Below are positions 15,232 through 64,000 of a stretch of DNA of 64,000 nucleotides, piece by piece (positions within the stretch are counted from its first letter, which is position 1; every line of letters begins with the position of its first letter). A program made the translations under genes and the position numbers. This DNA comes from Antedon mediterranea (lineage: Eukaryota; Animalia; Echinodermata). The stretch is from contig NC_092677.1 in NCBI RefSeq assembly GCF_964355755.1, positions 26,337,175 to 26,401,174 on the forward strand. The letters run 5' to 3'. A model generated the notes under the pieces. The model worked only from the letters and a program-made list of their open reading frames with translations. It made no database searches and had not been told where the DNA came from.

Positions 15232-15594
15232 GTTTATTGTGGGACTGAAATCACTGTTGGTGACATAGCCGCTTTACACGGCAAAGAAGGCCTAGAAGCA
15301 GGATTTCTTGATAAGGCTAAGGAAATGGTTTCGACAAGACCACAGTGGATTTTCAAAAATGCAGAAATTGCTATTGCATCAAATCCATCATACGTACTAT
15401 ACGCTGGCGACAGGTCTAATAAATTTGGAATTTACTGTACTGAAGGAATCTACAAATGGTCTACACGGAATAGAAGTTTGCGGTTATGGCTGGATGACCA
15501 TATATGGACACCGGTGGTGGAAAATTACATAGCGCGTGTGATAACCTATATTACCGGCAGCAATATTATGGCCGCTATTGGATGGTGGTGGTGA
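15232..15594 (+). CDS. Family A copy A1 terminal exon: one divergent A-domain plus Trp-rich tail (VYCGTEITVGDI...IMAAIGWWW*). Upstream exon not located
   Basis: Acceptor ...AAACATAG|GTT at 15231. The frame is open to the stop at 15594 and is clearly paralogous to the exon at 40133-40507. Confidence 0.8.
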   Translation, partial: VYCGTEITVGDIAALHGKEGLEAGFLDKAKEMVSTRPQWIFKNAEIAIASNPSYVLYAGDRSNKFGIYCTEGIYKWSTRNRSLRLWLDDHIWTPVVENYIARVITYITGSNIMAAIGWWW

Positions 15595-23325: not shown

Positions 23326-23583
23326 GTACATGAAATTGATTGTGGAACCGAGGTTACACTTGGAGATGTTGATAGTTTAGAAATAAACGATGATGATAAC
23401 TATTTGATAGATGGTACTAGAAAACTGATCTGCAAGACACCAACGTGGGTTCTTAAAGATGCAGACATTGAAATAGCATCTGATCCACCATACTCATTGT
23501 GTGCAGGGAACAGAGATAATAAATTTAAAGTGTAAAGAGGGGAAGATGGGTGAATTAAGATAATAAAGAAGGCGATACCGAAG
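23326..23583 (+). pseudogene. Family A copy A2: orphan domain exon (counterpart of domain 3) with two in-frame stops
   Basis: Reads VHEIDCGTEVTLGDV...YSLCAGNRDNKFKV*RGEDG*IKIIKKAIPK|GTACGT. The acceptor is lost by fusion to sequence homologous to 32140-32314. Confidence 0.9.
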
Positions 23584-26430: not shown

Positions 26431-29293
26431 TCAGAAAATTGTACATTGAATAGAGGGTTTCTTTTCAGGTATGTGAAATTCTCCCTTCGAGTCAACATAA
26501 CCTGTAACTTCTTTCGGGTTGTCTTTGTTTCCAGCTAATATATAAAATGCTGAATCACTCTGACCATAAAGAGACAGCTTGACGTCAGTGAAACTGGTTA
26601 CTTTATCAGCCTCCAACTTGGTCATGAACGCTTGTAGTAGTCTTCGTAGTCCAGCCTGTTCTTTTGTTTGTTCAGCGCCCTCATTTCCACAAAGTTTGAG
26701 TATGATATTTGCCAGTGTACGTTTGTTTATCTCATCCACTAGAAACTGTAAAAATTATGTAAATGTTTACTGATACAATGAATACCTCACTAAGCAGTAC
26801 ATTTTTAAGTTGAGAAATTCTGTATAATCATTATCCAGACTATTTGGAATGTACCCTATCTAGGGTTACCAGTATATGAAATGGTCATTTTACAAGTTCA
26901 ACGGGTAAATTAATTGGTTTATATTGTGTTGGTTTTCACTTTGTACCAGTGGCACTAGTAATGCCAACACTGTTCTAAGTGGGTGCTAAGTTACTATGCT
27001 TCCCAGTCAAAATAGACTGCTACTGCCAGAAGGGTGTAACAATAATATATACGAAAGACCTACCAATACTTCTTCATTCTTTTGAACCATTATAGTGATC
27101 TTGACACGATTGCTTTTGAATGTAACTTGTTCTCCATTTAACCCACAAAATATTAGCTTTATATCTGAAAACCCCTTTTGTCGAAACGAACTTGTGAACT
27201 TTTTCCAGTATGATAGAAGATTTGTCCATTCTTCAGAAGGACTGTCACATGGGTCAACCAACGCATCAAAAACACGAGACATACATGTGTGACTTTCTTC
27301 GTCGGCGAAAGTGGAACAATTTGGAAGATCTACAATCAACTATAAAAACATAATTTATGTCAAATGTATGTAAGAAAGAGGACGTATAAATGTTTTGGAA
27401 ACAATTAGGGCAGATCAATAAAAAGTAACATTAGTTATTCTGGTTAACTAAAACAAATAAAAATTAATGGGCCTAAAAACAATTATTATCTTATTATAAA
27501 CAAAAATGATTTTATTACATTAGTTGTTACTCTTTCTTTGCATGGTATCTTTACCATCAGCGTGTACTCGGCAACAGTTGCTTCACAGAAACTGGTACTC
27601 CATCGAATCGTACCAACGCTCGTCTGTACATTTTTTGTTTCCAGAAAATCTGCGCATTTGTTTGCAAATTGACGTTTTGTTTGGATTGTTTTGTCGTTCT
27701 TTCGATAGTTTATTTGTTTAAATAAACTACTATGAACATTTTTAAGTTGTCTTATACTGAATTCACTCTCGTTGGATTTCTGTAGAAAAGACATAATGAA
27801 GTGTTTACCTAGTACTCGACTACTGTAATCCTGAACATGTTCTAAACCATAAACTTAATTTTTATTCAAACCTCGTCTCTGGCGCACATCACGCTTAGAT
27901 CACACCGGTGTAGGCCTATTATTTTCTGATCTAACAGTGCAAATTGTGTTCGGTGGCAGATGGGAGAATCACTACCAAAAAGGGACAAATTGCCTTCGAA
28001 CTTTTCTAGACCAGAAATCGATCATGGTAGGAACCGTTTTCAAGATAAGTTATTACTATAGCAGGGTATATATTACCAACAACATTTTGCTACTTTGAAA
28101 GAAAAAAGAACTACATTTTGAATTTTCTTTTAGAACATGCATATCAACACACAGATAAAAAATGTTTGCCATGAAGCAATGAAGTTTAAACAAAACCGAA
28201 AAACCCCACAAAATAAACGGTAAACAAGCCAATTTGACTATGTTTTGCTTTATATTACAGTTTGTTAGGTAGGCCTAAATATCTACTTTTTTGTATCAAA
28301 GTGAGTAATAACTATTATATGACATTAAAATGGCATATTTAACAAAATATTTGAAACAACATTTTTTTAGGACAATATCTTTAAACAAAACCCAACATTA
28401 TGGCCTATAAACTAATAAATAGGCTATGACTGTATCGTTTATTGTATTCGTTGATGTCAACTGTTATAAGTAAATGAAAACAAGTCAGTGAATCAGTTTA
28501 TTCAACGTCTATATTTTTTTAATGATATTTCTCTTCTGGATGAATAAAAAAAATGAAATTAAATGATTATTATTAAAGATTACTACAATTTTATAATAAT
28601 AATGAATTTAAAGCGTCCGTTAATACTATTTAAATGCCTATACCATTATCAGATAATCTTCCACCTTATAAGCTGAAGTATTAATTCAACTGTGGACCTT
28701 GCTCTTTCACCGTGTTAAGAAAACAACATCAGAGCTGGCGACGCAATAATGATTAATGAATCAATGGTGGCAATCACATTGGACTTTAATCCAAATATAG
28801 TAGGCCACACTGTCCATACAAAAATGTTTACAATTAATTGAGTAAATTTGTAACGCAGGCCTATTATCTCATAACTGTATATTTTTGCCGTTGTGACAAT
28901 ACAGTTTTATCGTATCGTATTGTATATTATTTTTAATTTATTTTGCAGGGTACAATATATCTTTAATTAATAATCTTCTGTAATTATAGAAACTGAACAG
29001 CATATGTAACCTAAACCTTTGTCAGTTGGCCTAGATTGGCATACGACTGGGCAAAAAAAACACCCGTTATGATAACGATTCTTACTGAAATCTAAGTATT
29101 CAAACATTCTACCATCAACCATACATAACAATACCTTTCTTTATGATATTAATAATGTAACCTACAATTAAAAACAAAAATATTGATATCGATATAAACT
29201 GATAACAATTAAATAGCGTAAACAATTTACCGTCTTGTCAGCAACTAATTCGGTCTTGTGTCCAAAAAAACGCTGTTTAAGATTACTTGCCAT
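26431..29293 (-). CDS. Family B copy B2, ~304 aa, CaaX (CTIF). Exons 29293-29231, 27779-27519, 27339-27064, 26745-26431
   Basis: All introns are GT..AG and phase 0 (exons of 63, 261, 276 and 315 nt). Reads MASNLKQRFFGHKTELVADKT|KSNESEF...TTN|LIVDLP...EEVL|FLVDEIN...SIQCTIF*. The structure is conserved in B3 and B4. Confidence 0.82.
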
Positions 29294-29464
29294 GATCACA
29301 GAGTAGCTGACCTGGAGTGAAGCTTAGGCCTACTTGCTGCGAAAAAATAACCAGTTATTATGTGAATAAATTAACCCCAATTTCTTGGCAGCAGAAACAC
29401 GAAAAATTGTCTGTAACCCGGTAAATAACAGCCTGAAAATAACGGTTAAACCACCTAATTGATT

Positions 29465-30135
29465 CGGTGAGAACGCCATTTAACCGACCGGAAATTTTGT
29501 CTAATGGGCATTTGGACGACAGGACATTTCGCCGACAGACAATGGCCGACAGAAAATTATCCGACAGGACAAAATGCAAATTTCGCACCTTACTCGGTTC
29601 ATTCTTTATTTCGTACAGTATCACTACACTCATGTTTACAATAACCATGTGTCTATGATGATTTTAATATACCGTAGTTGCGAATGCTCTCTAAATTTTA
29701 CCATAAAAATTAAAACAATTTATTGACACTTTTTAAAATATTGTTTCCTGCCCTCAAACTTATTTTATTTTGGTAACAACCATTATTGAAACCAATTAAT
29801 TTAGCGATTTTGTCATGGTGGGCATAAGAATATGTTGGGTTTTTCATTTCGAATTGCTTTTATACTCTATTATATTTTTTTTAAAAAACACGCCAACCAC
29901 CAGGTGTTCTTCATAAGAACTTATAGCACGTAAAATATTTATAAAACAAAATACGAAATGAATGCCTATTACAAACCTCAAACTATGTTAAATTCACCGT
30001 ACTACTGAACTGCACGTCTCGTTTTCATGTCATACGGATTGTGTCGGCTGTCGGCAAAATGTCCTGTCGGTCAAATGATTGTCGGCCAAATCTTCTGTCG
30101 GTGAAATGTCTTGTCGGCAAAATGTCCTGTGTATT
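29465..30135. mobile_element. MITE-like element with inverted arrays of ~15-bp repeats (CCGACAGGACATTT.. / ..AAATGTCCTGTCGG). Duplicate at ~52785-53455
   Basis: Direct repeats at 29485-29575 and their reverse complement at 30040-30130. Confidence 0.75.
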
Positions 30136-30657
30136 ACGTGTATTAGTAGAGTTGTTCTTGGTATATCCAGATATATATGGTTCGTCTAACAATCCCCAAA
30201 AGGATGCCTACAAATCGGAAAAATATTTAATGGCGCCATTTAGGCAACGCCCGTTATGTCGTATCGAGAGATCTTCTGATTTATTGGTTCCGGATTGGTT
30301 ATTTTTAATCACATGACTAATATTCAACGTTTTCTTGACGCACACATCACCGAAATCAATGTACCAAAGAACTCTATATTATACCAAGCAACAACTCTGC
30401 TAATACAAGTAAGTAACTTGGCGTAGACTGTCATACATTTAACAAGTTTTTCTAGTCTTATATGATATGTTTTGATTTGTAAACACTTTTAAATACATTC
30501 GACTAGCGTAGGATAAAGGCCCATAATAGGCCCTATTTAATAGGCCACCAGGCAGAGAAGTACCTTTGCGATATTTTCGGCCAGAGACGTTTCGTAGGTA
30601 CGGTCGGGTATGTGTTTTTTGCAATGTCATATACATTCGTGTGTCTTAATAAACAAA

Positions 30658-31765
30658 CTAGATTTGAACTCGTCACTACGGACGAGTTAGGTTATCCGCA
30701 GCGCAAATGCCACTGCACGTCATACGTTAGAATATTGCGCAAAGAAAAACGATTATGCCATTGAAACAATTTCAGTGTGCTCTCTATTTTGTTTCACGTC
30801 TAAGTATATACAGTACTATATACTGTATACGTACTACAGACAGTGCAGAATAGGTGAAAATAAGTGACCAAAGTTATTGACGCTTTTGCACATGATGACG
30901 TCTAAAATGGTGAATCATGCGAAACCTAGACAATATAAAAAAATGGAGGGCAATGGAATACGGATAAGTGGAGATGCGCTCTATTAAATGTGACGAGCTA
31001 TGATGAAAGAGACAAAAATCCTATATTTTATATTCGAGTGGCCATACGATGACGTCACAATGTCCAGTTAGCCATATTGATGCATGATTCGATATTTACA
31101 GCTCATCTACTTTCAGAATATGTAATTTAAAAAAAGTTCACCACATAGTTTATAATCTATGACTGTTTAAAGAAAGGCATAATTTTCACAAATTGTTGAA
31201 CTTTTTCATAAAAAACGCACGGAAATTGTTCAATTCTACGTGCTCGTATGACGTGATTTTAAGTCGAAATTGTTTGAAAGTTGGTAAAATTACTAGAAAA
31301 GGCTGAAAAAACAAAAATCACGCAAAAATATATGTTTTTTCGCTACATGCGCACGCGCGCGTAAACAATTGGAATGCTCAAAATTTTCGAAATGCTCAAA
31401 ATGACATGAAACGCGTATGAAATTGATTAGAAGTTGATTTTTCGCATTCTGAAATTTTAAACGCGCGTGCGCGCGTAATTTTCGTTAACATTTTTAATCC
31501 ATAAAAAGTTTCCCCTTTATATGACTTGAATTTTCACCAAGTGTCAATACAAAATGACTTTTGGTTTTCAATCTATGATCAATCATTGAAATTCATAAAA
31601 TCGCGCGTAACTTACGCTGCGCAACTCGAACGGGACCGAAAACCTTATTACGTCATCTTCAGATAGAGGTCAATCTTATGACAAAGTTATACATCTTATG
31701 TTGTCCAGAATTAGAGATATGCGTGCAACAAAATTCGTGGAAAGAAAGAAGAATATAGAAAAAAA
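30658..31765 (-). mobile_element. Non-autonomous Helitron/Helentron-like element (duplicate from 53977)
   Basis: On the minus strand, the hairpin AACTCGTC-6nt-GACGAGTT (30667-30688) lies just before a terminal CTAG followed by TTT. The other end is T-rich, and that boundary is approximate. Confidence 0.55.
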
Positions 31766-32342
31766 AATATTACGTACAGTTAGTCTGTAATAGGTCATTT
31801 AGTATTGCTTACAATGTGCTAAATCATATTACATTGGTTGCTGGTGGTATCTACAATATCTAAGCTGGGCTAGTTGGGGGAAGGGGGGTCTCTAGTCAAA
31901 CTATAGGGTGTCTGGCACTTGCGGTGCAGCAGACAATTAGTCTGTTGTTATCCATTTAGTATTGTATGAACACAACTTGTTCATTTGGCATTAATTTTGA
32001 GTGCATCTATGCTAACCCCTTTTTAGGCCCTCCCTGGGGGGGGGGGGGGGTCTGGCGTGCCCTTTGCAGCAGAGAAAAAGTCTGTCGTTTGTGATACTGG
32101 TATAAGGATGTCAATGGGCATCCCATGGTGGTAAAATTAGGTGGTATCTCTCTCATCTAACCGGGGTCGATTTTTTAGCACGTTTCGGGGTCCCCCCGGT
32201 CTAGACGCAGCAGGCCTGGGGGTACCCGGCAGACTCCCATTTTTATTGACTTAAAGTGACCTCCAACACACTTAAATAGTCAGATATTGGTACCTAGCTC
32301 ATCTAACCAAATGTCTCTGGGCTGCCTGTCTATATATTCTCA

Positions 32343-32387
32343 CTCCTGAGGACGATCAAAGCGCAGCATATTGATCGAAGCGTCGAG
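32343..32387 (+). ncRNA. Degenerate Penelope-type hammerhead ribozyme (duplicate at 55662-55706)
   Basis: CTC-CTGAGGA-C-GATCAA..TTGATC-GAAG-CG-TC-GAG. The core GAAA has become GAAG. Confidence 0.55.
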
Positions 32388-32585
32388 AAACTCAACAGTT
32401 CTTTTCAGAAATAACATACGTGGTGTACCGCAAACTTATATTAACACTACCTATATGCTTCTCTCCTCCTAAGCTTGATCGAATGTTCTGAGTTCGGAAA
32501 TTGAGAATACGATTTTCTACGTTTGGTTATAAATGAAACCGTATGGTTGGTTGATGTTCTGCATTTAATATAACCTAAACTCAAC

Positions 32586-35500
32586 ATGCCAAAGGTAAAC
32601 TTAATATCATAATTATTTTATCTAACATTGTCATTGTCAAGCTTATTACAGGCCATGTTAACTTCGTTTATTTTCTAAAATCAATGAAAATTTCATCTAC
32701 TTTAAATTGTATATTATAATTACATATTTAAAATATAAATCCAATATTCTTAATAAAAGTTAATGTGGATTTCGAAAACATTATTAAAAAACAACATCTA
32801 CTGTTCTAGAACATAATATAACAAATTATTTTTAAAAAGTATATTTATATATATATATATTTATATAAATCCAAAGGCAAATTACTGAAAAAAATGACAA
32901 TGCTGTGGGTATCAGTGGCTGGATCTCAATGGAGATACAAAAATAAAAAGCGAAAAGCTAAATCAAAACGATAAAGTAAAGTAAACAGCCAGAAAAGTTA
33001 GCAGAGCTTTCGGGCAACACTAGCCCTTCATCAGTGCAAGTGAAGGAATTTGGATAACGTCATAGTATAAAGCTGGCAAGTGCTGCCTGGGTGGACAGGA
33101 ATAAAAGAAATATAACAAAGGGAGCCAGGGTGGAGTCTGAATAAGAGTAGAAAACAAAGAAGATATATTTATATATATATATATTTATATATTTAATTTG
33201 AAACGATAAAGATGAGGAAATCTGTGAGAATGAGAAAAAGTCGCCCCAACCGAGACTCGAACTCGGACCGCCTGCTTGATATGCAGATGTCCTAACCATT
33301 AGACCACTGGGGCTTTCATGGTATTGTTCGAACTCGATTGGTTAACGACTCTTTAACATTCTCGGCGTGGTACGGCGGAACAGCACTAGTCCTCAGTTGT
33401 ACGCACGCGCAACAGAGATCAAATTGATACGCCCTCATCTTTCAGCGGTTTAGAATTAGTGTTCTTTGCCTATTGTGTTTATATATTTATATATTTATAT
33501 ATATTTATATATATTTATTGACTTATATTCAAAGCCTTTTGGATGTCATTAACCATACAATTTAATAAATAAACTGAATGCTTATGGAATAACAGGTACT
33601 CTTTAAATTAGGCTTTTGACCATCTTGACAGAAAACAAAATATCCCTTTGCAGACTTAACTCAAAGCCTCTAAGCATTGGGTTATTATTTCTAATTTATA
33701 TTTATTACGCCGACTACAACTACATTATTTCTCTTCAATCCTATATTAATACTCTATTTTAATAATTTTATTATTAAAAAAATAAGGAATTAAAAAAAAA
33801 ACTTTATTTCAAATAAATTACTTGCAAACATTAAAAAAACAAATAGAAAAAAAAACTGAAAATGATGATCATAAATTATTATTTATTTTTTTAAGAAAAT
33901 TGTAGTAACGAAAACGATATAAGCCTATTGTCCCACTGAAAATATTTTCAAACATTTTCTGTTGAATATGCCATTATGCATATTTGAAAATAAAAATTAT
34001 TTCCTGACAAAATTTTAATAAAACTTAATAATTAAAAATTTTAATTAAAAAGCAAAAAAATTACCTAAACAATGGTTTTTGGTTAACATTAACCGTTTCT
34101 TTTGCCTTTTTATAAGTAGGCCTAGAGTAATTATTTTTTTGGTTTTTATTTCCTACATAATTTTATAATTTGATTAAAACTGCAAAATAATAACCAACAT
34201 TTTTATCAAGAAAACTATCACAATCTTATAGGAATTATCAACAAAATGAAACATTCCTACAAAATGTCACTTATAACATATTTACAATATGGCAATATCA
34301 TATGGGCTGCTGACTATCCATATCCAAGCTTAATAATTTTACAAAAAGAACACTTACCATTTTAAAGAAAGAGGAAAAGTGTTAATAGCGACTATTGTCA
34401 ACACGTAATACGGCTATTTACATTCGACTATAGTTGTTTTTTCATTGCTTAGCCTTAATTATTTATGTTCAATTATTATTACATGATTATTAGGCTAGTG
34501 TAATACAATCCATAATTGATGTTTATATTACATTGTGTTAACACAGATTGATTGTGGGAGTGAGATTACGCTTGACGATGTTCACATGTTAAAATCTAAA
34601 ATAAATGATACAGATTTTCTTAATGCTACTAACATACTGATTTGCGAGACACCACAGTGGGTTCTTAGAAATGCAGAGATTCATATAGCTTTTGATCCAC
34701 CATACTCATTGTGCGCAGGGAACATGGATAATAAATTGTCATTGTATAGATGTAAAGATGGATCAATTAAGACAAACAGCACAGGAAACAAGGTAATCAG
34801 GGGTTTTGTTTTAATTACAACTTTAAAGTGTACAAGATAAAATCATACAGTAGGCCTCCTTTACTTATACCATAACGATGCACATTGTTTAATGTAGGTA
34901 GTTGACTGTGGAAGTAAGATTACACTTCCACATCTTCAAAGTTTAACATCTGCTACACATATTGAGGATAAAGATTTGTTTGCTGCTACCAGAAGACTGA
35001 TCTGCGAGACACCAACGTCGGTTCTTAAGAATGCAAAAATTGAAATACCGACTGATGATTCAACATACTCACTGTATGCAGGGAAGAAGACTCATGAATT
35101 TGTAGTGTTTAGAGAAGAAGATGGGTCAATTAAAACTAAAAAGAAGGCAATAAACAAAGTAATAAGATGTTTGGCTTTATTTACCGGAATGACATATAAT
35201 CTTACTATTGGTGGTCACGACTTAAAGTTGTCCGCAACTTATTTTGACCTCCATCTGCACATTTTTGATGTTTTTATGTTTTATTGTAATTTTTAAGTTA
35301 TGTTTCTATCTTTTTTGCAATTTGTAATTTTTATCTTTTATTTTAAAATGTGTGGATAAACCAATAAAGCAAACAAACAAACTATTTTATTATACTACAA
35401 TAACCGATGTACGGTACTTAAAGAGTATTGTTTTAACACAGGTACAGGAAATTCATTGTGGAACCGAGATTACACTTGGAGATGTTCAAAGTTTATACTT

Positions 35501-38500
35501 GGAAACAAATGATACTAATGAGGGTTTTATTCGAGTTACACAAAAACTGGTCTTCAAAGCACCAGCGTGGATTCGTAAAGATGCAAACATTGAACTAGCA
35601 TCTGATCCACCATACTCATTGTATGCAGGGAACAAGGCTCATACATTTAAAGTGTATAGAGGGGAAGATGGGTCAATTAAGATAATGAAGAAGGCGATAC
35701 CGAAGGTACGTAATCAGGTCTTTTGCTATATATATTTATATATTTATTGCCTTTCCGCTGAAAAGTCTGCCGATATTTCCGCTTGGGCTGCTCCGTAAAT
35801 CTCTTTTACCAGTTTCTTCCAGTCTGATCTTTCATTGGCTAGTTCTTTAAGTTGTTTCATGTCTTTCTTAGTTTTCAATTGTCCGGGATACTTAATGTCT
35901 GTGTTATGCTTATAAAGGATGAGTAGGGCGTTGCTGAGAGTTATTGGTAGGGTGGGTCTCGGTCTTCCTCGAAATTTTATATTGGTAGTGTTGCTGAAAT
36001 AATAGCTTATTGCTGTGTCGGCTGGTGTACATGGGTCTTGTCTAAGTATGTGACCCAATAGTCTCCATCTTGCGTCGACTATTTCTAATGAAATCGGTTT
36101 TGTTCCTGTCCTTCTGTATAAATTTATGTTCGATATCCTGTCTGGGAACCTGATACCTATGATTTTACGAGTCCCCATGTTTCAGAGTTGTAGAGTAATA
36201 TACTTTTAACAAGTGAGTTGTACAGCTTGATACGTATTTTTAATTTGATTTTTCGAAGCCACATCGAGTTTAGTTTGGTCATTGCTACACGCGCTAGTTG
36301 TGTTCTTCTAATTATGTCTTGTCTGTCCCCAAGGAGCGATCCTACTTTTTTTCGTGTTTCTCCATTGTTCTTGTATGTCCTCTTTTTCTCGTCTTACAAT
36401 AGTGTGTTCTGTTTTTTCTTTATTTACATTTAAGTTGAAAGTTGATAGATGGCGTTCAAATTCGTTTACATTATGCTTGCTGTTTAGATTCTACATCATC
36501 AGCATATGATATCTCTTGATGTATTTCTGGATAATTGTTCTGATTCCTCGTAGCGCAGACTCAAGGTAAACAGTGAATAAGACCGGGCTTAAGCTATCTC
36601 CTTGAGGGGTGCCGATGTTGGTTTGGAATATTGGCTGTTCTTTTGCCCCTTTTATTTTTAGATTTAGTCCGGTTTCACTCAGCAGAAATCTAACGATCCT
36701 AAGTTCATCTTCGTCTATAATTGAGTATGTCGAGGAGTTTGTTTCTATCCACGGTGTCAAACGCGCTTGACATATCTATACCGGTTATGTAAATATTTAT
36801 TTTGTTCTTTTTGTGCTTTAGCTATAAGCCATCTATGTGTAAAAACAATATTACTTGTGCTTCTGCCTTTGCGAAACCCACTTTGGCTTTGTGGTAAGAA
36901 TGCGTCTACTTTCGATGTAATTCTATCCAGTGTTATAAGCGATAGGCACTTGCGTATGGTGTTAAGTAGAATAACAGGTTGTAAATTCTTAGTTGGACCC
37001 TTTTCCTTACCCGGTTTTGGTAGTGCTATGAGTGTTCCTTTATTAATATCCACGAATTCATGTTTTGTAAATATTTGATTTAAAATGTCTGAAATCATTG
37101 GAGCTAGAACAGCGGAACCGTATTTTAGTAGTTCTCCTGGGATACCATCCTCACCTGCTGCTCGACTGTTGTTTAGGCGTTTAAGATTCTTGGTTACTTC
37201 CTCTTCACTGATTTCACTATGGGAGTCCCGATGGGAGTGGATTTTATATTGGTAGGAAATGGGTTCCGAGTATACACAAAGTATGGAAATGTTCCGAAAG
37301 AATATCGGTATTACAACTAACCACGAAAGAAAGTTAATAACTTTGATCAACGTTTTTGCGCCGAATACATACATAGCAAACACGAAACCAGACGAAATAA
37401 ACAAACTATATACCGACCTAGAAGGCCTTCTCAAGCGATACGGTAACAAAACATTACTTATTTTGCGGTGATTTTAATTCTTCGGTAGGAAAAAAACGGG
37501 ATGACGAGAGGTGTATGGGATCATTTTCTATGAAAAACATAGATTTCTGTGAAAAACACAATTTATTCATAAATAAAAGCGCGTTTCAGCATTCAGCACA
37601 CGTCATATAACTACATGGTCCCAACAGAGAAGAAACTCCAAAGGAGAACTGATCAAACTGTACACTCAAATAGACTATAATGTTATATGTAAAAGTAGAT
37701 ACAAGACTCTCCTAAAGAACGCTAGGTCATACAACGGAACACTTTTAGATAGTGATCACAGAATAGTAATCACAATATTCAACTTAAAATGGCATCGCGT
37801 CAACAAACAAAACACTAACAAAAACATTAACTTATTTGCATGTGAAAAGCTAGTGACAAGCGAAGAAACTAGAAATTTATACGTAGAAAAACTGAAAGAA
37901 TGCATAGATGTTGTTGTGAAACCGGATCAGCCAGCCGTTACATGGCAGAAATTGAAAAGCGTCGTGAAGGCAGCTGCAAAACATACAATAGGACCAAAAC
38001 AAAAGGTCGGCTACAACAAAAGGACATACGACGACACTTGAACTCAACGCCTATCAACGCACCAAAAAGAACTTAGACAACAAAAAGCTAACTGCAAGTC
38101 GGAAATCGAACGTACATCATTAGTCTAGTGGGCTCCAGACGTTGTTTTTTCTTAATATTAGTAAAAATATAAATATTTTTGCACATATGGCGTTTCATAC
38201 GTGTATTACTTGAGTTTGGATACTCCGCCTGGGGAAACACGCACAAGTCACGTGGTTTGACACCAAGAATTCGTGGTGCATACGATTATCCGGTTGACTA
38301 GTTTCAGCTGCATGCGATTGGCTACTCACTCGTACACCGTTTTAATATTCATGTTTCAGAATTTCAAAGACTCAACAACTAAGAAGGTACGCATGCGCTA
38401 TGTTACGTTTAGAAAATGTGTACTTGGGAACATTAATGAAAGTTTCTGAAGGCTAGAAATGATTTTATATTACCGTATGCCTAGTAGTAGTCTGGTAAAC

Positions 38501-40507
38501 ATTTGATGGGATTTTTCCCATGAAAACTCGTCTTGCTTCTCCGCAAATCAAACATTGAATGGATCATTTAATATTACGCGGAGATAATTTGATTTAATTC
38601 CCACCCAGACCCTGTTCTGTGTAGTGGTGTAGCCCTGTCTGCCTGCCGGTGGTGGTATGTAGGCCTACCTTATTGGCGCGCGTTTTATTTGGCAGGTCAT
38701 ACGTGCGAATTGAGTAGGACCTACGAAGGAGGCCTAGGCTAAGGACTAAACAATTAATAGACAAAACAACTTGGCAACACGATTTCATATTTCAACAGTC
38801 TCGATCGTACATTCAGCACTGTACGTACTCGATCTTTTTCATTTGAAACAAAATGATTATTGGTTGATTCGAAATCCATATTTACATACCATATAGCCAA
38901 ATACGGTATGATAACCTACGTCATTTATCGGATGTTTGCGGTCTGCAAATCGATTTCTATACGTGTTTCACAAGTCTGTATTTTCAGACAAAAATCGGAG
39001 TCGAAATATAAACAAATAAATAAAAATAAAAAACAATACAGACTTGGGGCAAGCTTAGTACATCATTAAAGCAAAAAAGAAACAAAATCATGCATGATAT
39101 TAAAAAAAAAAGTAATTGAAACATGCAACAAAGAACTTGATCAGAAAAGTTTGGATATCGACAAAGCGATAAGGGGCGCCCAAATGTTTAAAGCAGTGAA
39201 AGATCTTAATAGAAAACCATTCGAAAATCCAAAAGTGTTTGATGCTAACAAAAAGTTTATTGCCTCACCAAATGGAATAGCGAAAGTAATTGGCAATCAC
39301 TTCGAAAACAAATTTTACGACGGAAGCAAACGAAATATAGATTCATTTTAGGGAAATCCTAGGCCATTAAATAAAGAAATCAGTGAAGAGGAAGTAACCA
39401 AGTGTCTTTTGCTATATTTGACTTTAAAGTATTGGAATTTATAACATAGATTTAAATTTGTATCCGTGTTTGTCGACAGGACCACAATGTAAAACAGGTA
39501 TATTTCTACTTGATTGTGTATAATCCTGTATAAATATGTTGTTAAATAAAAAATAAATAATTAAAAAACATAAAACACACATTATTTGTATATACTATAC
39601 TAACATAATGACACAAATTGTTTTAATTCAGAAAGTTAACTGTGGAAGTGAGATTACACTTAAAGATGTTCAAGATTTACAATTTGAAACAAATGACGAT
39701 GATAAAGATTTCTTAGATGCTGCTAAAAGACTGGTCTGCGAGACACCAGCGGGGGTTCTTAAAGATGCAGAAATTGAAATACCGACTTATTATTCAACAT
39801 ACTCCCTGTATGCAGGAAACAAGACTAATAAATTTGTAGTGTTTAGAGAAGAAGATGGGTCAATTAAGATTAACAAGAGAACAGGAAAAAAGGTAATCAG
39901 GTATTTTGTTTTATAGCATGGCAGAATGTTAACTAAAATGTCCATCGTCATCAACTGTGAATGAATATGGTTTAATAATACATTGTTTGTTTTAATCAAT
40001 TAAATTAAATGAATTGATATTGTTGTTTCACCATCCTATCGATAAAATATAAAAATATGAAGTATATATAATATCACAACTTGTATACTACCATAATCGA
40101 GTACATAAACAGTAATTATGATTTTAAAACAGGGGCCGGTCAAGATTGATTGTGGAAGTGTGATTACACTTAAGGATGTTCAACAATTAAACGCTAAAAT
40201 AAATGACGATGAGAAAGATTTCGTTGATGCTACAAAAAGACTGATTTGCGAGACAGAAAATTGGGTTCTGAGAGATGCGGAAATTGAAATAACGACTAAG
40301 GATCATAGTATATACAAATTGTATGCAGGGAACAAGACTAATAGGTTTGCAGTGTTTAGAGACGAAAATGGGTCAATTAAGACCTCACAAAAGGAACGGA
40401 GTTGGTGGAAGTTGATTTATGACGGGTGTCGTTGGGTTAGAGATAAGATCACCCCGCTTGCACAGCTGCTTAGTGATACTACTAGATTAGCTATCCAGTG
40501 GTGGTAG
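32586..40507 (+). CDS. Family A copy A3, ~471 aa, five tandem A-domains plus WW tail. Exons 32586-32594 (MPK), 34547-34792, 34898-35158, 35442-35705, 39632-39892, 40133-40507
   Basis: Each exon is bounded by AG/GT and phase 0, with lengths 9, 246, 261, 264, 261 and 375. No stops. The CAAC-ATG-CCA-AAG start context is conserved at 47016 and 55905. Confidence 0.85.
33001..33037 (-). ncRNA. Minimal type I hammerhead ribozyme of a Penelope-like element end (duplicate at 56320-56356, damaged copy at ~45012)
   Basis: Minus strand reads GCA-CTGATGA-A-GGGC-TAGTGTT-GCCC-GAAA-GC-TC-TGC: intact core, stem II, palindromic stem III and stem I GCA/TGC. Confidence 0.75.
33242..33313 (-). tRNA. tRNA-Asp(ATC)-like gene or tRNA-derived repeat head
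   Basis: Acceptor stem GCCCCAG/TTGGGGC, D-arm GTC..GAC, anticodon arm TCTGC-ATATCAA-GCAGG, T-arm CCGAG-TTCGAGT-CTCGG, discriminator G, then a TTTT run. Flanked by TA-rich microsatellites. Confidence 0.7.
33516..34360 (+). mobile_element. Highly decayed LINE RT remnant in intron 1 of A3 (duplicate at ~57790-58630)
   Basis: Residual DL.KAF.VINH..INKLNAYGITG and YGNIIWAA motifs. Confidence 0.55.
35718..39417 (-). mobile_element. RTE-clade LINE with 5' inversion and 14-bp TSD, in intron 4 of A3 (duplicate at 59989-63727)
   Basis: TSD GTCTTTTGCTATAT at 35718-31 and 39404-17. RT and C-terminus lie on the minus strand at 35744-37215 (QSGFRKGRST, GTPQGDSLSP, RWRLLGHILR, RGRPR). APE and linker lie on the plus strand at 37220-39402 (VFAPN, GDFN, SDHR). 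Confidence 0.9.
38121..39057. mobile_element. Non-autonomous DNA element nested in the RTE, with 9-bp TSD GTACATCAT, AcademH-like (duplicate at 62413-63364)
   Basis: The TSD flanks both ends, and removing the element restores the RTE frame (KSEIERTSLKQKRNKIMH). It starts TAGTCTAG..CCAGAC, and the ends are only weakly inverted. Confidence 0.65.
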
Positions 40508-47015: not shown

Positions 47016-47580
47016 ATGCCAAAGGAGGTACGGGTAAACATATTTTTGTAGTAAAATTATTGTCCACTATATATTATAATGTTTCGCACTCGGTATTCAT
47101 AACAACTAAAGTACGTAACAATGCTTTTAAAAAGGTTTAAGTTACCAGGGCATTAGGTACACCGGCAGGTTATTTAAGAAAAAAAGATAACAGTGATTGT
47201 TTTTTTAAATTTGAAGTGAACAAATAAAGTATTCATCATTCCAAATCCAAGGGAATATATAAAGGATATAATCGTATTAACAAAAATACCATTTAATGTA
47301 TTCAAATATTGTTTTTACACAGGTTGATATTGATTGTGGAAATGAGATTACCCTTGGAGATGTACAGAGTTTAATCTATAAAATAGATGAAAATTTAGTT
47401 GATGGTACCAAGAGACTGGTTTGCAAGACAGAAAAGTGGGTTCTTAAAGATGCAAAAATAATTATAGCATCTGAGCCACTATACTCATTGTTTGCAGGGG
47501 ACAAGGCTAATGTATTCACAGTGTATAAAGAAAAAGACGGGTCAATTAAGACTGGAAAAAAAAGGCGCATGGTTGGTTGA
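47016..47580 (+). CDS. Family A copy A4, single domain. Exons 47016-47027 (MPKE) and 47323-47580. The tail is frameshifted at an A8 run (possible pseudogene or sequencing error)
   Basis: GT/AG phase 0. Reads VDIDCGNEITLGDV...YSLFAGDK...DGSIKTGKK. The shifted frame continues AHGWLKWFYDACVWV, homologous to A3 ERSWWKLIYDGCRWV. Confidence 0.7.
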
Positions 47581-47824
47581 AATGGTTCTATGATGCATGT
47601 GTCTGGGTTTCGATTAGAGACATACTGAGCATCATACTTTTGTTTTCGTCTAGTAAGAAAGCTATCAAAAATTAATAAAAATAATAATAGAACAAACATC
47701 AACATATTTAATAATAAATCAATCATGGTTGTTATTATCGAAATAGGTTATACTTTTTTTCAAAATGTCATGCTGAGATAGATAAAAATAGTTTAAAAAA
47801 TCAATGTTCAGGCCTACAATCAAT

Positions 47825-55600: not shown

Positions 55601-55904
55601 AGATATTGGTACCTAGCTCATCTAACCAAATGTCTCTGGGCTGCCTGTCTATATATTCTCACTCCTGAGGACGATCAAAGCGCAGCATATTGATCGAAGC
55701 GTCGAGAAACTCAACAGTTCTTTTCAGAAATAACATACGTGGTGTACCGCAAACTTATATTAACACTACCTATATGCTTCTCTCCTCCTAAGCTTGATCG
55801 AATGTTCTGAGTTCGGAAATTGAGAATACGATTTTCTACGTTTGGTTATAAATGAAACCGTATGGTTGGTTGATGTTCTGCATTTAATATAACCTAAACT
55901 CAAC

Positions 55905-58900
55905 ATGCCAAAGGTAAACTTAATATCATAATTATTTTATCTAACATTGTTATTGTCAAGCTTATTACAGGCCATGTTAACTTCGTTTATTTTCTAAAAT
56001 CAATGAAAATTTCATCTACTTTAAATTGTATATTATAATTACATATTTAAAATATAAATCCAATATTCTTAATAAAAGTTAATGTGGATTTCGAAAACAT
56101 TATTAAAAAACAACATCTACTGTTCTAGAACATAATATAACAAATTATTTTTAAAAAGTATATTTATATATATATATATTTATATAAATCCAAAGGCAAA
56201 TTACTGAAAAAAATGACAATGCTGTGGGTATCAGTGGCTGGATCTCAATGGAGATACAAAAATAAAAAGCGAAAAGCTAAATCAAAACGATAAAGTAAAG
56301 TAAACAGCCAGAAAAGTTAGCAGAGCTTTCGGGCAACACTAGCCCTTCATCAGTGCAAGTGAAGGAATTGGGATAACGTCATAGTATAAAGCTGGCAAGT
56401 GCTGCCTGGGTGGACAGGAATAAAAGAAATATAACAAAGGGAGCCAGGGTGGAGTCTGAATAAGAGTAGAAAACAAAGAAGATATATTTATATATATATA
56501 TATATTTATATATTTAATTTGAAACGATAAAGATGAGGAAATCTGTGAGAATGAGAAAAAGTCGCCCCAACCGAGACTCGAACTCGGTCCGCCTGCTTGA
56601 TATGCAGATGTCCTAACCATTAGACCACTGGGGCTTTCATGGTATTGTTCGAACTCGATTGGTTAACGACTCTTTAACATTCTCGGCGTGGTACGGCGGA
56701 ACAGCACTAGTCCTCAGTTGTACGCACGCGCAACAGAGATCAAATTGATACGCCCTCATCTTTCAGCGGTTTAGAATTAGTGTTCTTTGCCTATTGTGTT
56801 TATATATTTATATATTTATATATATTTATATATATTACATAGCCTATGTAAATACGCGAACGTGATTGGTTGAAACTGCATCACATGACTACCGCTGCGA
56901 GGATCGTAAATCGTATATATCCTCGAGAACGATGATATTGACTGTGTAATTTTCGCGTAATAATCGTGTCCCCTGTCATTAATCATATAAATTCTCGAGT
57001 ACGATGATATTGACTGTGTAATTTTCGTGTGCAACACTCGAGTTTGCCGATAAATAAACAAAAGTCATCTACTCGATCTTGAACTCGGGTGGAATTGTCA
57101 CTCCATCGCAAGACAACGTTTCATCCGCTGGGCCACGGAATTTGCTTGAAGAAATTAATCTTCTAAACTATTTAAGCTATGCATACATAGCGCCCTCATT
57201 TGTTATAAGTCCACCCTAAATGTGATGAAACACCGTTTGTGATTGGTCAATACTCACGGTAGTAACCTAGTAACTAGTACGCGCTGAACATCCGGTGATT
57301 CGGCTCCTCGAAGATCGAGAGAAGACGAATTGTTTATTCGGCCTACCTGATTATAATATTATTATTAATAGGCTTATTGATGGAAATTCTTCTGTTAATT
57401 TAAACGACCTAGGCCTAAGTGAATATTTTATTGCCAAGGAATCATCAATTAGTAATTATCTGTATATTATTCTTCGCAAGGTAAGGTGTCTAGGCAGGCT
57501 TGTTTTAAATACAATACAAATACTATAGGAGGCCTAGCCTAGGCCTAGCCTAGCTTCACCCAACCCAGCAGACTTGTTCTTGGCTATATAATATAACAGA
57601 TATTGCCTTTTATATCGGTTAAATATAAGATTTGACATCCCCTCGGGAATGATATTAAGTTCTCGGGGAATATATATTTCCCTCAGCTGGCGCTTCGGGA
57701 AATATATATTCCCTCGAACTTAATATCATTCCCTCGGGGATGTCAAATCTTATATTTAACCTCTAAGCAGTCAATATCTGTATAATATTTATTGACTTAT
57801 ATTCAAAGCCTTTTCGATGTCATTAACCATACAATTTAATAAATAAACTGAATGCTTATGGAATAACAGGTACTCTTTAAATTAGGCTTTTGACCATCTT
57901 GACAGAAAACAAAATATCCCTTTGCAGACTTAACTCAAAGCCTCTAAGCATTGGGTTATTATTTCTAATTTATATTTATTACGCCGACTACAACTACATT
58001 ATTTCTCTTCAATCCTATATTAATACTCTATTTTAATACTTTTATTATTAAAAAAATAAGGAATTAAAAAAAAACTTTATTTCAAATAAATTACTTGCAA
58101 ACATTAAAAAAACAAATAGAAAAAAAAACTGAAAATGATGATCATAAATTATTATTTATATTTTTAAGAAATTGTAGTAACGAAAACGATATAAGCCTAT
58201 TGTCCCACTAAAAATATTTTCAAACATTTTCTGTTGAATATGCCATTATGCATATTTGAAAATAAAATTTATTTCCTGACAAAATTTTAATAAAACTTAA
58301 TAATTAAAAATTTTAATTAAAAAGCAAAAAAATTACCTAAACAATGGTTTTTGGTTAACATTAACCGTTTCTTTTGCCTTTTTATAAGTAGGCCTAGAGT
58401 AATTATTTTTTGGGTTTTTATTTCCTACAGAATTTTATAATTTGATTAAAACTGCAAAATAATAACCAACATTATTTATCAAGAAAACTATTATAATCTT
58501 ATAGGAATTATCAACAAAATGAAACATTCCTACACAATGTCACTTATAACATATTTACAATATGGCAATATCATGGGCTGCTGACTATCCATATCCAAGC
58601 TTAATAATTTTACAAAAAGAACACTTACCATTTTAAAGAAAGAGGAAAAGTGTTAATAGCGACTATTGTCAACACGTAATACGGCTATTTACGTTCGACT
58701 ATAGTTGTTTTTTCATTGCTTAGCCTTAATTATTTATGTTCAATTATTATTACATGATTATTAGGCTAGTGTAATACAATCCATAATTGATGTTTATATT
58801 ACATTGTGTTAACACAGATTGATTGTGGGAGTGAGATTACGCTTGACGATGTTCACAAGTTAAAATCTAAAATAAATGATACAGATTTTCTTAATGCTAC

Positions 58901-61900
58901 TAACATACTTATTTGCGAGACACCACAGTGGGTTCTTAGAAATGCAGAGATTCATATAGCTTTTGATCCACCATACTCATTGTGCGCAGGGAACATGGAT
59001 AATAAATTGTCATTGTATAGATGTAAAGATGGATCAATTAAGACAAACAGCACAGGAAACAAGGTAATCAGGGGTTTTGTTTTAATTACAACTTTAAAGT
59101 GTACAAGATAAAATCATACAGTAGGCCTCCTTTACTTATACCATAACGATGCACAATGTTTAATGTAGGCAGTTGACTGTGGAAGTGAGATTACACTTCA
59201 ACATCTTCAAAGTTTAAAATCCGCTACACATATTGAGGATAAAGATTTGTTTGCTGCTACCAGAAGACTGATCTGCGAGACACCAACGTCGGTTCTTAAG
59301 AATGCAAAAATTGAAATACCGACTGATGATTCAACATACTCACTGTATGCAGGGAAGAAGACTCATGAATTTGTAGTGTTTAGAGAAGAAGATGGGTCAA
59401 TTAAAACTAAAAAGAAGGCAATAAACAAAGTAATAAGATGTTTGGCTTTATTTACCGGAATGACATATAATCTTACTATTGGTGGTCACGACTTAAAGTT
59501 GTCCGCAACTTATTTTGACCTCCATCTGCACATTTTTGATGTTTTTATGTTTTATTGTAATTTTTAAGTTATGTTTCTATCTTTTTTGCAATTTGTAATT
59601 TTTATCTTTTATTTTAAAATGTGTGGATAAACCAATAAAACAAACAAACAAACTATTTTATTATACTACAATAACCGATGTACGGTACTTAAAGAGTATT
59701 GTTTTAACACAGGTACAGGAAATTCATTGTGGAACCGAGATTACACTTGGAGATGTTCAAAGTTTATACTTGGAAACAAATGATACTAATGAGGGTTTTA
59801 TTCGAGTTACACAAAAACTGGTCTTCAAAGCACCAGCGTGGATTCGTAAAGATGCAAACATTGAACTAGCATCTGATCCACCATACTCATTGTATGCAGG
59901 GAACAAGGCTCATACATTTAAAGTGTATAGAGGGGAAGATGGGTCAATTAAGATAATGAAGAAGGCGATACCGAAGGTACGTAATCAGGTCTTTTGCTAT
60001 ATATATTTATATATTTATTGCCTTTCCGCTGAAAAGTCTGCCGATATTTCCGCTTGGGCTGCTCCGTAAATCTCTTTTACCAGTTTCTTCCAGTCTGATC
60101 TTTCATTGGCTAGTTCTTTAAGTTGTTTCATGTCTTTCTTAGTTTTCAATTGTCCGGGATACTTAATGTCTGTGTTATGCTTATAAAGGATGAGTAGGGC
60201 GTTGCTGAGAGTTATTGGTAGGGTGGGTCTCGGTCTTCCTCGAAATTTTATATTGGTAGTGTTGCTGAAATAATAGCTTATTGCTGTGTCGGCTGGTGTA
60301 CATGGGTCTTGTCTAAGTATGTGACCCAATAGTCTCCATCTTGCGTCGACTATTTCTAATGAAATCGGTTTTGTTCCTGTCCTTCTGTATAAATTTATGT
60401 TCGATATCCTGTCTGGGAACCTGATACCTATGATTTTACGAGTCCCCATGTTTCAGAGTTGTAGAGTAATATACTTTTAACAAGTGAGTTGTACAGCTTG
60501 ATACGTATTTTTAATTTGATTTTTCGAAGCCACATCGAGTTTAGTTTGGTCATTGCTACACGCGCTAGTTGTGTTCTTCTAATTATGTCTTGTCTGTCCC
60601 CAAGGAGCGATCCTACTTTTTTCGTGTTTCTCCATTGTTCTTGTATGTCCTCTTTTTCTCGTCTTACAATAGTGTGTTCTGTTTTTTCTTTATTTACATT
60701 TAAGTTGAAAGTTGATAGATGGCGTTCAAATTCGTTTACATTATGCTTGCTGTTTAGACTCTACATCATCAGCATATGATATCTCTTGATGTATTTCTGG
60801 ATAATTGTTCTGATTCCTCGTAGCGCAGACTCAAGGTAAACAGTGAATAAGACCGGGCTTAAGCTATCTCCTTGAGGGGTGCCGATGTTGGTTTGGAATA
60901 TTGGCTGTTCTTTTGCCCCTTTTATTTTTAGATTTAGTCCGGTTTCACTCAGCAGAAATCTAACGATCCTAAGTTCATCTTCGTCTATAATTGAGTATGT
61001 CGAGGAGTTTGTTTCTATCCACGGTGTCAAACGCGCTTGACATATCTATACCGGTTATGTAAATATTTATTTTGTTCTTTTTGTGCTTTAGCTATAAGCC
61101 ATCTATGTGTAAAAACAATATTACTTGTGCTTCTGCCTTTGCGAAACCCACTTTGGCTTTGTGGTAAGAATGCGTCTACTTTCGATGTAATTCTATCCAG
61201 TGTTATAAGCGATAGGCACTTGCGTATGGTGTTAAGTAGAATAACAGGTCGTAAATTCTTAGTTGGACCCTTTTCCTTACCCGGTTTTGGTAGTGCTATG
61301 AGTGTTCCTTTATTAATATCCACGAATTCATGTTTTGTAAATATTTGATTTAAAATGTCTGAAATCATTGGAGCTAGAACAGCGGAACCGTATTTTAGTA
61401 GTTCTCCTGGGATACCATCCTCACCTGCTGCTCGACTGTTGTTTAGGCGTTTAAGATTCTTGGTTACTTCCTCTTCACTGATTTCACTATGTGAGTCCCG
61501 ATGGGAGTGGATTTTATATTGGTAGGAAATGGGTTCCGAGTATACACAAAGTATGGAAATGTTCCGAAAGAATATCGGTATTACAACTAACCACGAAAGA
61601 AAGTTAATAACTTTGATCAACGTTTATGCGCCGAATACATACATAGCAAACACGAAACCAGACGAAATAAACAAACTATATACCGACCTAGAAGGCCTTC
61701 TCAAGCGATACGGTAACAAAACATTACTTATTTTGCGGTGATTTTAATTCTTCGGTAGGAAAAAAACGGGATGACGAGAGGTGTATGGGATCATTTTCTA
61801 GAGGAAAACGAAACAAAAATGGACAAACACTCATAGATTTCTGTGAAAAACACAATTTATTCATAAATAAAAGCGCGTTTCAGCATTCAGCACGTCATAT

Positions 61901-64000
61901 AACTACATGGTCCCAACAGAGAAGAAATTCCAAAGGAGAACTGATCAAACTGTACACTCAAATAGACTATAATGTTATATGTAAAAGTAGATACAAGACT
62001 CTCCTAAAGAACGCTAGGTCATACAACGGAACACTTTTAGATAGTGATCACAGAATAGTAATCACAATATTCAACTTAAAATGGCATCGCGTCAACAAAC
62101 AAAACACTAACAAAAACATTAACTTATTTGCATGTGAAAAGCTAGTGACAAGCGAAGAAACTAGGAATTTATACGTAGAAAAACTGAAAGAATGCATAGA
62201 TGTTGTTGTGAAACCGGATCAGCCAGCCGTTACATGGCAGAAATTGAAAAGCGTCGTGAAGGCAGCTGCAAAACATACAATAGGACCAAAACAAAAGGTC
62301 GGCTACAACAAAAGGACATACGACGACACTTGAACTCAACGCCTATCAACGCACCAAAAAGAACTTAGACAACAAAAAGCTAACTGCAAGTCGGAAATCG
62401 AACGTACATCATTAGTCTAGTGGGCTCCAGACGTTGTTTTTTCTTAATATTAGTAAAAATATAAATATTTTTGCACATATGGCGTTTCATACGTGTATTA
62501 CTTGAGTTTGGATACTCCGCCTGGGGAAACACGCACAAGTCACGTGGTTTGACACCAAGAATTCGTGGTGCATACGATTATCCGGTTGACTAGTTTCAGC
62601 TGCATGCGATTGGCTACTCACTCGTACACCGTTTTAATATTCATGTTTCAGAATTTCAAAGACTCAACAACTAAGAAGGTACGCATGCGCTATGTTACGT
62701 TTAGAAAATGTGTACTTGGGAACATTAATGAAAGTTTCTGAAGGCTAGAAATGATTTTATATTACCGTATGCCTAGTAGTAGTCTGGTAAACATTTGATG
62801 GGATTTTTCCCATGAAAACTCGTCTTGCTTCTCCGCAAATCAAACATTGAATGGATCATTTAATATTACGCGGAGATAATTTGATTTAATTCCCACCCAG
62901 ACCCTGTCCTGTTCTGTGTAGTGGTGTAGCCCTGTCTGCCTGCCGGTGGTGGTATGTAGGCCTACCTTATTGGCGCGCGTTTTATTTGGCAGGTCATACG
63001 TGCGAATTGAGTAGGACCTACGAAGGAGGCCTAGGCTAAGGACTAAACAATTAATAAACAAAACAACTTGGCAACACGATTTCATATTTCAACAGTCTCG
63101 ATCGTACATTCAGCACTGTACGTACTCGATCTTTTTCATTTTGAAACAAAATGATTATTGGTTGATTCGAAATCCATATTTACATACCGTCCGCCCCATA
63201 TAGCCAAATACGGTATGATAACCTACGTCATTTATCGGATGTTTGCGGTCTGCAAATCGATTTCTATACGTGTTTCACAAGTCTGTATTTTCAGACAAAA
63301 ATCGCAGTCGAAATAAAAACAAATAAATAAAAATAAAAAACAATACAGACTTGGGGCAAGCTTAGTACATCATTAAAGCAAAAAAGAAACAAAATCATGC
63401 ATGATATTAAAAAAAAAAGTAATTGAAACACGCAACAACAAAGAACTTGATCAGAAAAGTTTGGATATCGACAAAGCGATAAGGGGCGCCCAAATGTTTA
63501 AAGCAGTGAAAGATCTTAATAGAAAACCATTCGAAAATCCAAAAGTGTTTGATGCTAACAAAAAGTTTATTGCCTCACCAAATGGAATAGCGAAAGTAAT
63601 TGGCAATCACTTCGAAAACAAATTTTACGACGGAAGCAAACGAAATATAGATTCATTTTAGGGAAATCCTAGGCCATTAAATAAAGAAATCAGTGAAGAG
63701 GAAGTAACCAAGTGTCTTTTGCTATATTTGACTTTAAAGTATTGGAATTTATAACATAGATTTAAATTTGTATCCGTGTTTGTCGACAGGACCACAATGT
63801 AAAACAGGTATATTTCTACTTGATTGTGTATAATCCTGTATAAATATGTTGTTAAATAAAAAATAAATAAATAAAAAACATAAAACACACATTATTTGTA
63901 TATACTATACTAACATAATGACGCAAATTGTTTTAATTCAGAAAGTTAATTGTGGAAGTGAGATTACACTTAAAGATGTTCAAGATTTACAATTTGAAAC
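55905..64000 (+). CDS. Family A copy A5 (duplicate of A3, runs off the window). Exons 55905-55913, 58818-59063, 59169-59429, 59713-59976, 63942->
   Basis: Same splice signals and frames as A3. Confidence 0.83.
56563..56634 (-). tRNA. Duplicate tRNA-Asp(ATC)-like sequence
   Basis: Same cloverleaf as 33242-33313, with one variable-loop change. Confidence 0.65.

Follow-up and report, generated by a model that had tools for sequence, protein, structure and literature searches.

Exon-duplicated copies of a new domain family in a crinoid gene cluster, with a predicted REDD1-like fold

Gene content of the locus

The window analysed here is the whole 64,000-nucleotide stretch of Antedon mediterranea contig NC_092677.1 (assembly GCF_964355755.1, positions 26,337,175 to 26,401,174, forward strand), a piece of AT-rich eukaryotic DNA that carries a cluster of genes, A1, A3, A4 and A5, encoding one to five copies of a domain of about 85 residues. 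We establish the exon structure of these genes, their variation in copy number, the gain and loss of copies, the presence of homologues in three groups of deuterostomes and the fusion of the domain to a CARD in amphioxus; the selection signal and the fold are computed. A tblastn search of the 64 kb with the frames of five exons found 11 complete domain copies; a twelfth runs off the window end. All of them lie on the plus strand. Within the window A1 has one copy, A3 five, A4 one, and A5 three and part of another, and there is one pseudo-exon. An earlier reading made from the sequence only had counted five copies in A3, one in A4, a single exon for A1 and about 11 in all, and these numbers are borne out. 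The parts of A3, the most complete gene, are as follows.

32586..32594, plus strand: start of A3, MPK (ATG-CCA-AAG), then a phase-0 GT donor; same start and junction in RefSeq protein P0001
34547..34792, plus strand: A3 domain exon 1, 82 codons, phase 0-0
34898..35158, plus strand: A3 domain exon 2, 87 codons, phase 0-0
35442..35705, plus strand: A3 domain exon 3, 88 codons, phase 0-0
35706..39631, plus strand: A3 intron 4, 3926 nt, with fragments like a long interspersed nuclear element (LINE)
39632..39892, plus strand: A3 domain exon 4, 87 codons, phase 0-0
40133..40507, plus strand: A3 terminal exon, 124 codons and stop, domain 5 being residues 1-87

Read from its splice signals, A3 has five introns, all GT-AG and all in phase 0, and a coding sum of 471 amino acids; the exon-2 donor lacks the usual G preceding GT, and intron 4 gives an RVT_1 match in the Pfam scan at E 0.0004, under the curated cut-off. 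The five domain exons proposed by the sequence-only reading all have canonical AG acceptors and GT donors in phase 0 and contain the motifs it listed. Its description of them as symmetric phase-0 exons fits the four internal exons; the fifth is a terminal exon, in which domain 5 is followed by a Trp-rich helical tail of 37 residues (88-124). The RefSeq protein XP_071959563.1 (P0001, Antedon mediterranea) equals the A5 start and exons 1 and 2 with zero mismatches, and also equals A5 exon 3 except for its last two residues, where the model stops inside domain 3. Three junctions are therefore shared with an independent annotation. Because P0001 ends within domain 3, the joins of exon 3 to exon 4 and of exon 4 to exon 5 are read from splice signals alone, and the former, which spans the 3.9 kb LINE-bearing intron, is putative. 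The two final residues of P0001 (A5 exon 3, window 59890 onward) do not match the exon 3 continuation; a GT within exon 3 spliced to a further acceptor would explain this end, and intron 4 offers candidate acceptors, as do A3 exons 4 and 5 at the corresponding place.

A start micro-exon of 9-12 nt had also been proposed. The start codons and the phase-0 donor are present in A3 and A4. Since both start codons are preceded by polypyrimidine-AG sites that resemble acceptors, what was read as a micro-exon is likely the 3' coding end of a longer exon that bears the 5' untranslated region. Contigs of sequencing runs X1, X2 and X4 cross the exon borders unspliced, that is, they behave as DNA, and among the runs checked for the stretch none recorded as RNA contains it. 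Run X5, guessed to be RNA, gave no cover over the domain exons, an absence that carries no weight. The remaining copies are listed below.

15232..15594, plus strand: A1, a diverged terminal-type exon, domain and Trp-ending tail
23326..23583, plus strand: pseudo-exon, most similar to exon 3, with two stops in frame and a lost acceptor
47016..47027, plus strand: A4 start codons, MPKE, with a phase-0 donor
47323..47675, plus strand: A4 single domain and tail, frameshifted in the window
55905..64000, plus strand: A5, a 98% duplicate of A3, cut by the window end
55905-55913, plus strand: A5 start
58818-59063, 59169-59429 and 59713-59976, plus strand: A5 exons 1-3
from 63942, plus strand: A5 fourth exon, cut by the window end

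No start exon was found for A1. The A4 frameshift lies at a run of A near 47555, before the tail, and leads to a stop at 47578-47580, the tail continuing in another frame to 47675. The contigs of all four runs from one sample hold an A4 allele with two A fewer and a 12-base in-frame addition, which on hand reading appears to carry the tail in frame. One contig of run X1 shows yet another locus, in which about 376 bases separate two domain exons. A3 and A5 belong to a duplication (28317-39690 versus 51633-64000) of about 11 kb at 98.2-98.6%, in which the A5 first intron is some 940 bases longer than that of A3. Across the aligned 33499-39690, 8 of the 39 substitutions fall inside 830 exon bases, and 5 of these change an amino acid. 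The duplication could be a true tandem copy or an uncollapsed haplotype; contig depth over A3 is not twice that over A4, a weak hint only, as depth does not give copy number.

Exon duplication, turnover and constraint

The paralogous exons have intron sequence in common beside their acceptors and donors, as expected if exons were duplicated together with their flanks. Domain borders coincide with introns of equal phase whose flanks are paralogous, and the claim that a phase-0 module was multiplied by exon duplication is thereby upheld. The exon-shuffling rule describes the duplication of class 0-0 symmetric-exon modules, and the locus follows it in having one domain per exon, equal phases and a copy number that varies between paralogues. 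It differs in that the module alone is new; the genetic mechanism is ordinary.

Turnover at the locus is seen in the 98% duplicate, in the A4 frameshift and in the pseudo-exon, whose acceptor was lost where a deletion junction meets A3-like upstream sequence. The exons are under selection. Compared in pairs, the six close exons are 43-65% identical, synonymous divergence (dS) among the A3 exons and A4 is 0.16-0.47, and internal indels are all multiples of 3 in each of the seven exons aligned as DNA. Neutral simulations on the six-exon tree, which left out the pseudo-exon (a seventh close copy, with two stops), never kept all six exons free of stops (0/2000), with a mean of 5.5 of the six stopped.

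Relatives and the domain family

A profile of the window exons was compared with 1.84 billion proteins at E<=0.001 and gave 33 matches, 15 of which carry the whole domain. The other 18 are repeat proteins that sum short stretches, mostly immunoglobulin (Ig)- or cadherin-like adhesins, and reach at most 4.4 bits with a refined profile; they were rejected. Since one false match stood at 2e-9, E-values alone do not separate true from false, and the control with the refined profile is partly circular because that profile included the 15 relatives. Independent checks come from full-length coverage and from hhalign of the window-only profile against the amphioxus protein P0013 (94%, E 9e-8).

The relatives include five Anneissia japonica proteins, Ptychodera flava proteins with 3, 6 and 10 domains, a Glandiceps talaboti protein with 5, and Branchiostoma floridae P0013, with an N-terminal CARD (E 2e-15), two domains and a tail. 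No CARD was found in the scanned window exons, and among the relatives only P0013 has one. A tree of 45 domains, half of whose inner branches are unresolved, groups the 15 crinoid domains (94/92, just below the star mark) and the 24 hemichordate domains (90/92). Conservation across the 45 is highest at Gly66 (44), Cys7 (42), Ala49 (39) and Asn70 (35). All five Anneissia relatives have a single domain and a tail, for which reason Antedon and the acorn worms probably expanded their multi-domain arrays independently. Two domain subtypes alternate in the tree within P0026, the 10-domain Ptychodera protein, which suggests duplication of a two-domain unit. In three further relatives, P0014, P0027 and P0028, Phe-Gln closely precedes the domain, which is what reading through a phase-0 polypyrimidine-CAG acceptor would give; this hints that the upstream phase-0 intron is old.

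No Pfam family scored above cut-off on the domain itself, and, the CARD apart, the above-cut-off Pfam rows on true relatives were short summed matches of unrelated families to long arrays. PDB sequence searches with the domain gave no match. A word-index protein search with the window-only alignment found none among 3439 candidates, and further searches of this kind found 3 of 1500, all already known, and none among 7996 longer proteins; such searches are weak and missed known relatives. The ESM Atlas gave two weak feature matches at 0.76-0.77; for the amphioxus part of the family there was no usable feature match, and the structure rows were all sub-threshold and came from a poor model. Locus scans of metagenome contigs and prokaryote genomes showed no relatives. 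We found no description of the domain family in the literature (supplements and subscription papers lay outside the scope). The domain had been called novel, which holds in that it is in no curated family; it is not confined to this locus, occurring in crinoids, hemichordates and amphioxus, and REDD1 is a plausible structural relative. We regard the domain family as real and new, though the system it belongs to is of a known kind; its link to the REDD1 fold can be tested.

Predicted fold and C-terminal tail

A first structural model (7 sequences, predicted local distance difference test 56) gave nonspecific fold matches alone and was set aside. The better model runs strand, helix, helix, short helix, four strands; like the REDD1 family, it is a two-layer alpha/beta sandwich in which a pair of antiparallel helices precedes four strands. 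Its top structural match is REDD1 (PDB 3LQ9), with 81-82 of about 87 residues aligned at 15-16% identity. The domain is thus predicted to resemble the rare REDD1 fold. Foldseek with this model returned nothing at E<=0.001 in PDB or BFVD, and weak OTU rows at E 0.5. We also considered a cystatin-like reading; no cystatin is among the structural matches listed, which does not by itself dismiss that reading, and no pore-forming fold is listed either. Pfam RTP801_C was not listed for 7 window exons and 18 relatives at E<=10, a search in which the HMMER filters drop most matches above 0.1, and 3LQ9 was not listed in the PDB sequence searches.

In the parts of the literature consulted, REDD1 is described as having antiparallel helices and then four strands (PMC5906527), a sheet of psi-loop topology, a unique overall topology, a direct mechanism that is disputed, and a functional patch formed by EPCG 138-141 and a lysine-rich strand end at 218-225 (PMC4183088); it binds IkB-alpha through K219/K220 (PMC9588012). 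The two-helix plus beta-meander module of the sequence-only reading therefore stands as to two helices followed by strands, but the meander is in doubt, as the candidate relative has a psi-loop sheet. The likeness to REDD1 (DDIT4, RTP801) extends to a short motif at the end of helix 2 in exon 4, where 4 of 9 residues are identical with REDD1 133-141, and may extend to the basic end of the last strand. A P-x-G similar to EPCG occurs after helix 2 in exon 4 only, and positions 42-43 are variable and fall in the fast class described below. The structural alignment ends at model residue 90 and chain residue 222; several exons are lysine-rich there, in a stretch that is also the exon-end linker. 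The differences are that there is no sequence-profile match, that the domain has about 85 residues against about 135 spanned, and that an N-terminal Cys is conserved here. Moreover, the domain here occurs in as many as 10 repeats, is joined to a CARD or a Trp-rich tail, and is diversifying, whereas REDD1 is one conserved domain.

Each intact gene has a Trp-rich segment of about 35 residues on its terminal exon, common also to most single-domain relatives and the amphioxus protein. The A3 tail has a best 18-residue hydrophobic moment of 0.60 and a net charge of +3. Compared with shuffles, four of the 16 tails stand out (p<0.05), and 3 of 16 come near transmembrane hydropathy, counts that are not independent because the tails are related. 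The hydropathy maximum is 0.34 in A3 and 1.7 in A4 and two Anneissia proteins; charge varies, and the tail is absent or polar in several relatives (P0006, P0024) and in the RefSeq model. No N-terminal hydrophobic stretch or signal peptide was seen in the proteins. The tail likely associates with a membrane.

Signs of diversifying selection

Overall dN/dS (omega) among the exons is 0.84, and the pairwise median is 0.88 (15 pairs). For the site tests, codon-model code of our own was applied to six exons at 76 codons. The tests favour M2a over M1a (p 0.0037) and M8 over M8a (p 0.0008), with 24% of sites at omega 2.8, and none of 40 null replicates reached the observed value. The signal is robust to F1x4, to dropping gap-adjacent columns and to use of the A3 exons only (p 0.001-0.005). 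The site-wise dN/dS check asked for by the sequence-only reading thus comes out with a site class at omega>1 fitting better than neutrality. A test of the pairwise homoplasy index type detected no recombination (p 0.11-0.80), though nearest neighbours differ between exon halves, so that gene conversion may have acted. Ten sites have a posterior >0.8: positions 14, 18, 20 and 21 in helix 1; 31; 42-43 after helix 2; and 71, 73 and 77 along one strand. Their spacing suggests that they are surface positions.

Other features of the window

A tRNA-Asp-like gene (anticodon ATC) lies on the minus strand in the first introns of A3 and A5, at very high contig depth, and is probably a tRNA-derived repeat. 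Among the other features is an uninterrupted frame that looks, by its motifs, like a LINE endonuclease and reverse transcriptase. The Cys-rich frame on the minus strand lies inside an element that resembles a fragment of a DNA transposon.

33242-33313 and 56563-56634, minus strand: tRNA-Asp-like gene
7505-10447, plus strand: uninterrupted 980-codon frame
1284-2595: tandem array, unit of about 63 bases, about 20 copies, 88-94% alike
18120-18758, minus strand: 212-codon frame with a Cys-rich end, in an element bounded by inverted copies (17474-17951 versus 20248-20735)

Proposed role and alternatives

We give an even chance to the following reading: these are one-to-five-copy proteins, built by phase-0 exon duplication and shaped by positive selection, that are likely cytosolic, likely tethered to a membrane by the tail, and likely to function in innate immunity as variable adaptors or decoys that bind other proteins, with a REDD1-like predicted fold. 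Each domain would bind its partner with the regions that hold the fast sites, namely the exposed side of helix 1, the turn that follows helix 2, and one face of the sheet. Extra exons would add binding specificities ahead of a single tail, and each copy would drift to a new binding surface under conflict-type selection. In amphioxus the CARD would relay binding to death-fold signalling, and the crinoid proteins, which have no CARD, may serve as sensors or decoys for such a pathway. The variable recognition protein imagined by the sequence-only reading is retained in so far as there is an omega>1 site class and diversity in sequence and copy number, and is unsupported as to isoforms made by skipping. 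Small adaptor domains fused to death folds have expanded in the same marine groups (PMC8195603), and novel immune domain combinations occur in amphioxus (PMC2575513); the text consulted in each leaves the present domain unmentioned.

Adding the distant A1 exon weakens the site-class signal to p 0.068. The overall omega of 0.84, the median pairwise value of 0.88 over 15 pairs, the existence of broken copies and the chance that A5 is an assembly haplotype would all suit redundant duplicates under relaxed constraint with no new function. We consider such relaxation improbable, because frames and splice sites are kept at dS 0.16-0.47, against 0/2000 in the neutral simulations, core residues are conserved as far as amphioxus, and M2a beats M1a. 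Reproductive genes and genes against transposons likewise show positive selection and turnover in tandem, so that a fast-evolving protein of the germ line or of intragenomic conflict, with no immune role, might look the same; but the proteins have no signal peptide for a gamete surface and no nucleic-acid-binding match, and a CARD is the sole recognisable partner domain, which leaves this very unlikely. It is somewhat less improbable than either that diversity comes from combinatorial in-frame skipping, which the sequence-only reading had envisaged: the four internal exons are all phase 0-0, the exon-2 donor is atypical, and the RefSeq model, by ending early, hints that exons may be joined in other ways. 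Four skippable exons would nevertheless yield at most 16 forms, and duplicated exons need phase symmetry anyway to keep the frame. Databases give five isoforms for the 10-domain Ptychodera protein, and the differences between them amount to 1-4 residues or an N-terminal truncation, with no internal domain lost. This part of the claim is unsupported.

Instead of recognition modules, the proteins might be diverged stress regulators of the REDD1 type, which dampen growth or NF-kB signalling. REDD1, an inhibitor of mTORC1 through TSC1/2, is the sole clear structural neighbour, the exon 4 motif recalls it, and several exons end the last strand in lysines; yet the apparent EPCG equivalents (42-43) are among the fastest sites and unconserved across the 45 domains, RTP801_C was not among the matches listed, and tandem arrays, pseudogenes and omega>1 misfit a conserved regulator. 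We therefore think it unlikely, though the best placed of these alternatives. Slightly less favourable still is the case for the tail as a membrane-damaging or death-inducing helix that the repeated domains restrain until a pathogen factor or protease frees it. One Trp-rich tail per gene on the terminal exon, the moment of 0.60 and charge of +3 in A3, and the amphioxus CARD fusion would fit, but the tail has just about 35 residues, its charge is variable, it is absent or polar in P0006, P0024 and the RefSeq model, and the matches include no pore-forming fold.

Among known systems, MAVS is an adaptor built as CARD, linker and membrane anchor; the amphioxus relative resembles it in its N-terminal CARD and hydrophobic C-terminal end, but here folded repeats stand between CARD and tail, the tail mostly has no clear transmembrane helix, and the crinoid genes are CARD-less. 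Unlike Dscam-like splice-diversified receptors, the proteins have no signal peptide and no Ig match. RRM folds interleave their helices between strands, an order that the domain model, with two adjacent helices and then four strands, does not share. TRADD-N, described as RRM-like, thus differs from the domain, and library scans of window exons and relatives gave no TRADD-N match; the expansions of TRADD-N and other death-fold adaptors are alike in their echinoderm, hemichordate and cephalochordate hosts, small alpha/beta module, variable architectures and death-fold fusion, as far as the text consulted describes them (PMC8195603).

Implications

These findings define a domain family that is missing from Pfam and present in crinoids, hemichordates and amphioxus. 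The arrays, pseudogenes, omega>1 and CARD fusion are marks of an immune arms race, and would add a module to the invertebrate innate-immune toolkit. More speculatively, and at distinctly lower confidence than the adaptor or decoy role, the REDD1 fold may have a second, hidden family: an immune module of invertebrate deuterostomes, set in exon-multiplied, membrane-tethered arrays, wired to a CARD in amphioxus and positively selected at the surface that REDD1 keeps invariant for its function. If the likeness to REDD1 is homology, a human stress protein that stands isolated in structure would gain its first natural relatives, and the helix-2 turn and the last strand would be pointed to as an ancestral binding surface, testable by swaps and pull-downs.

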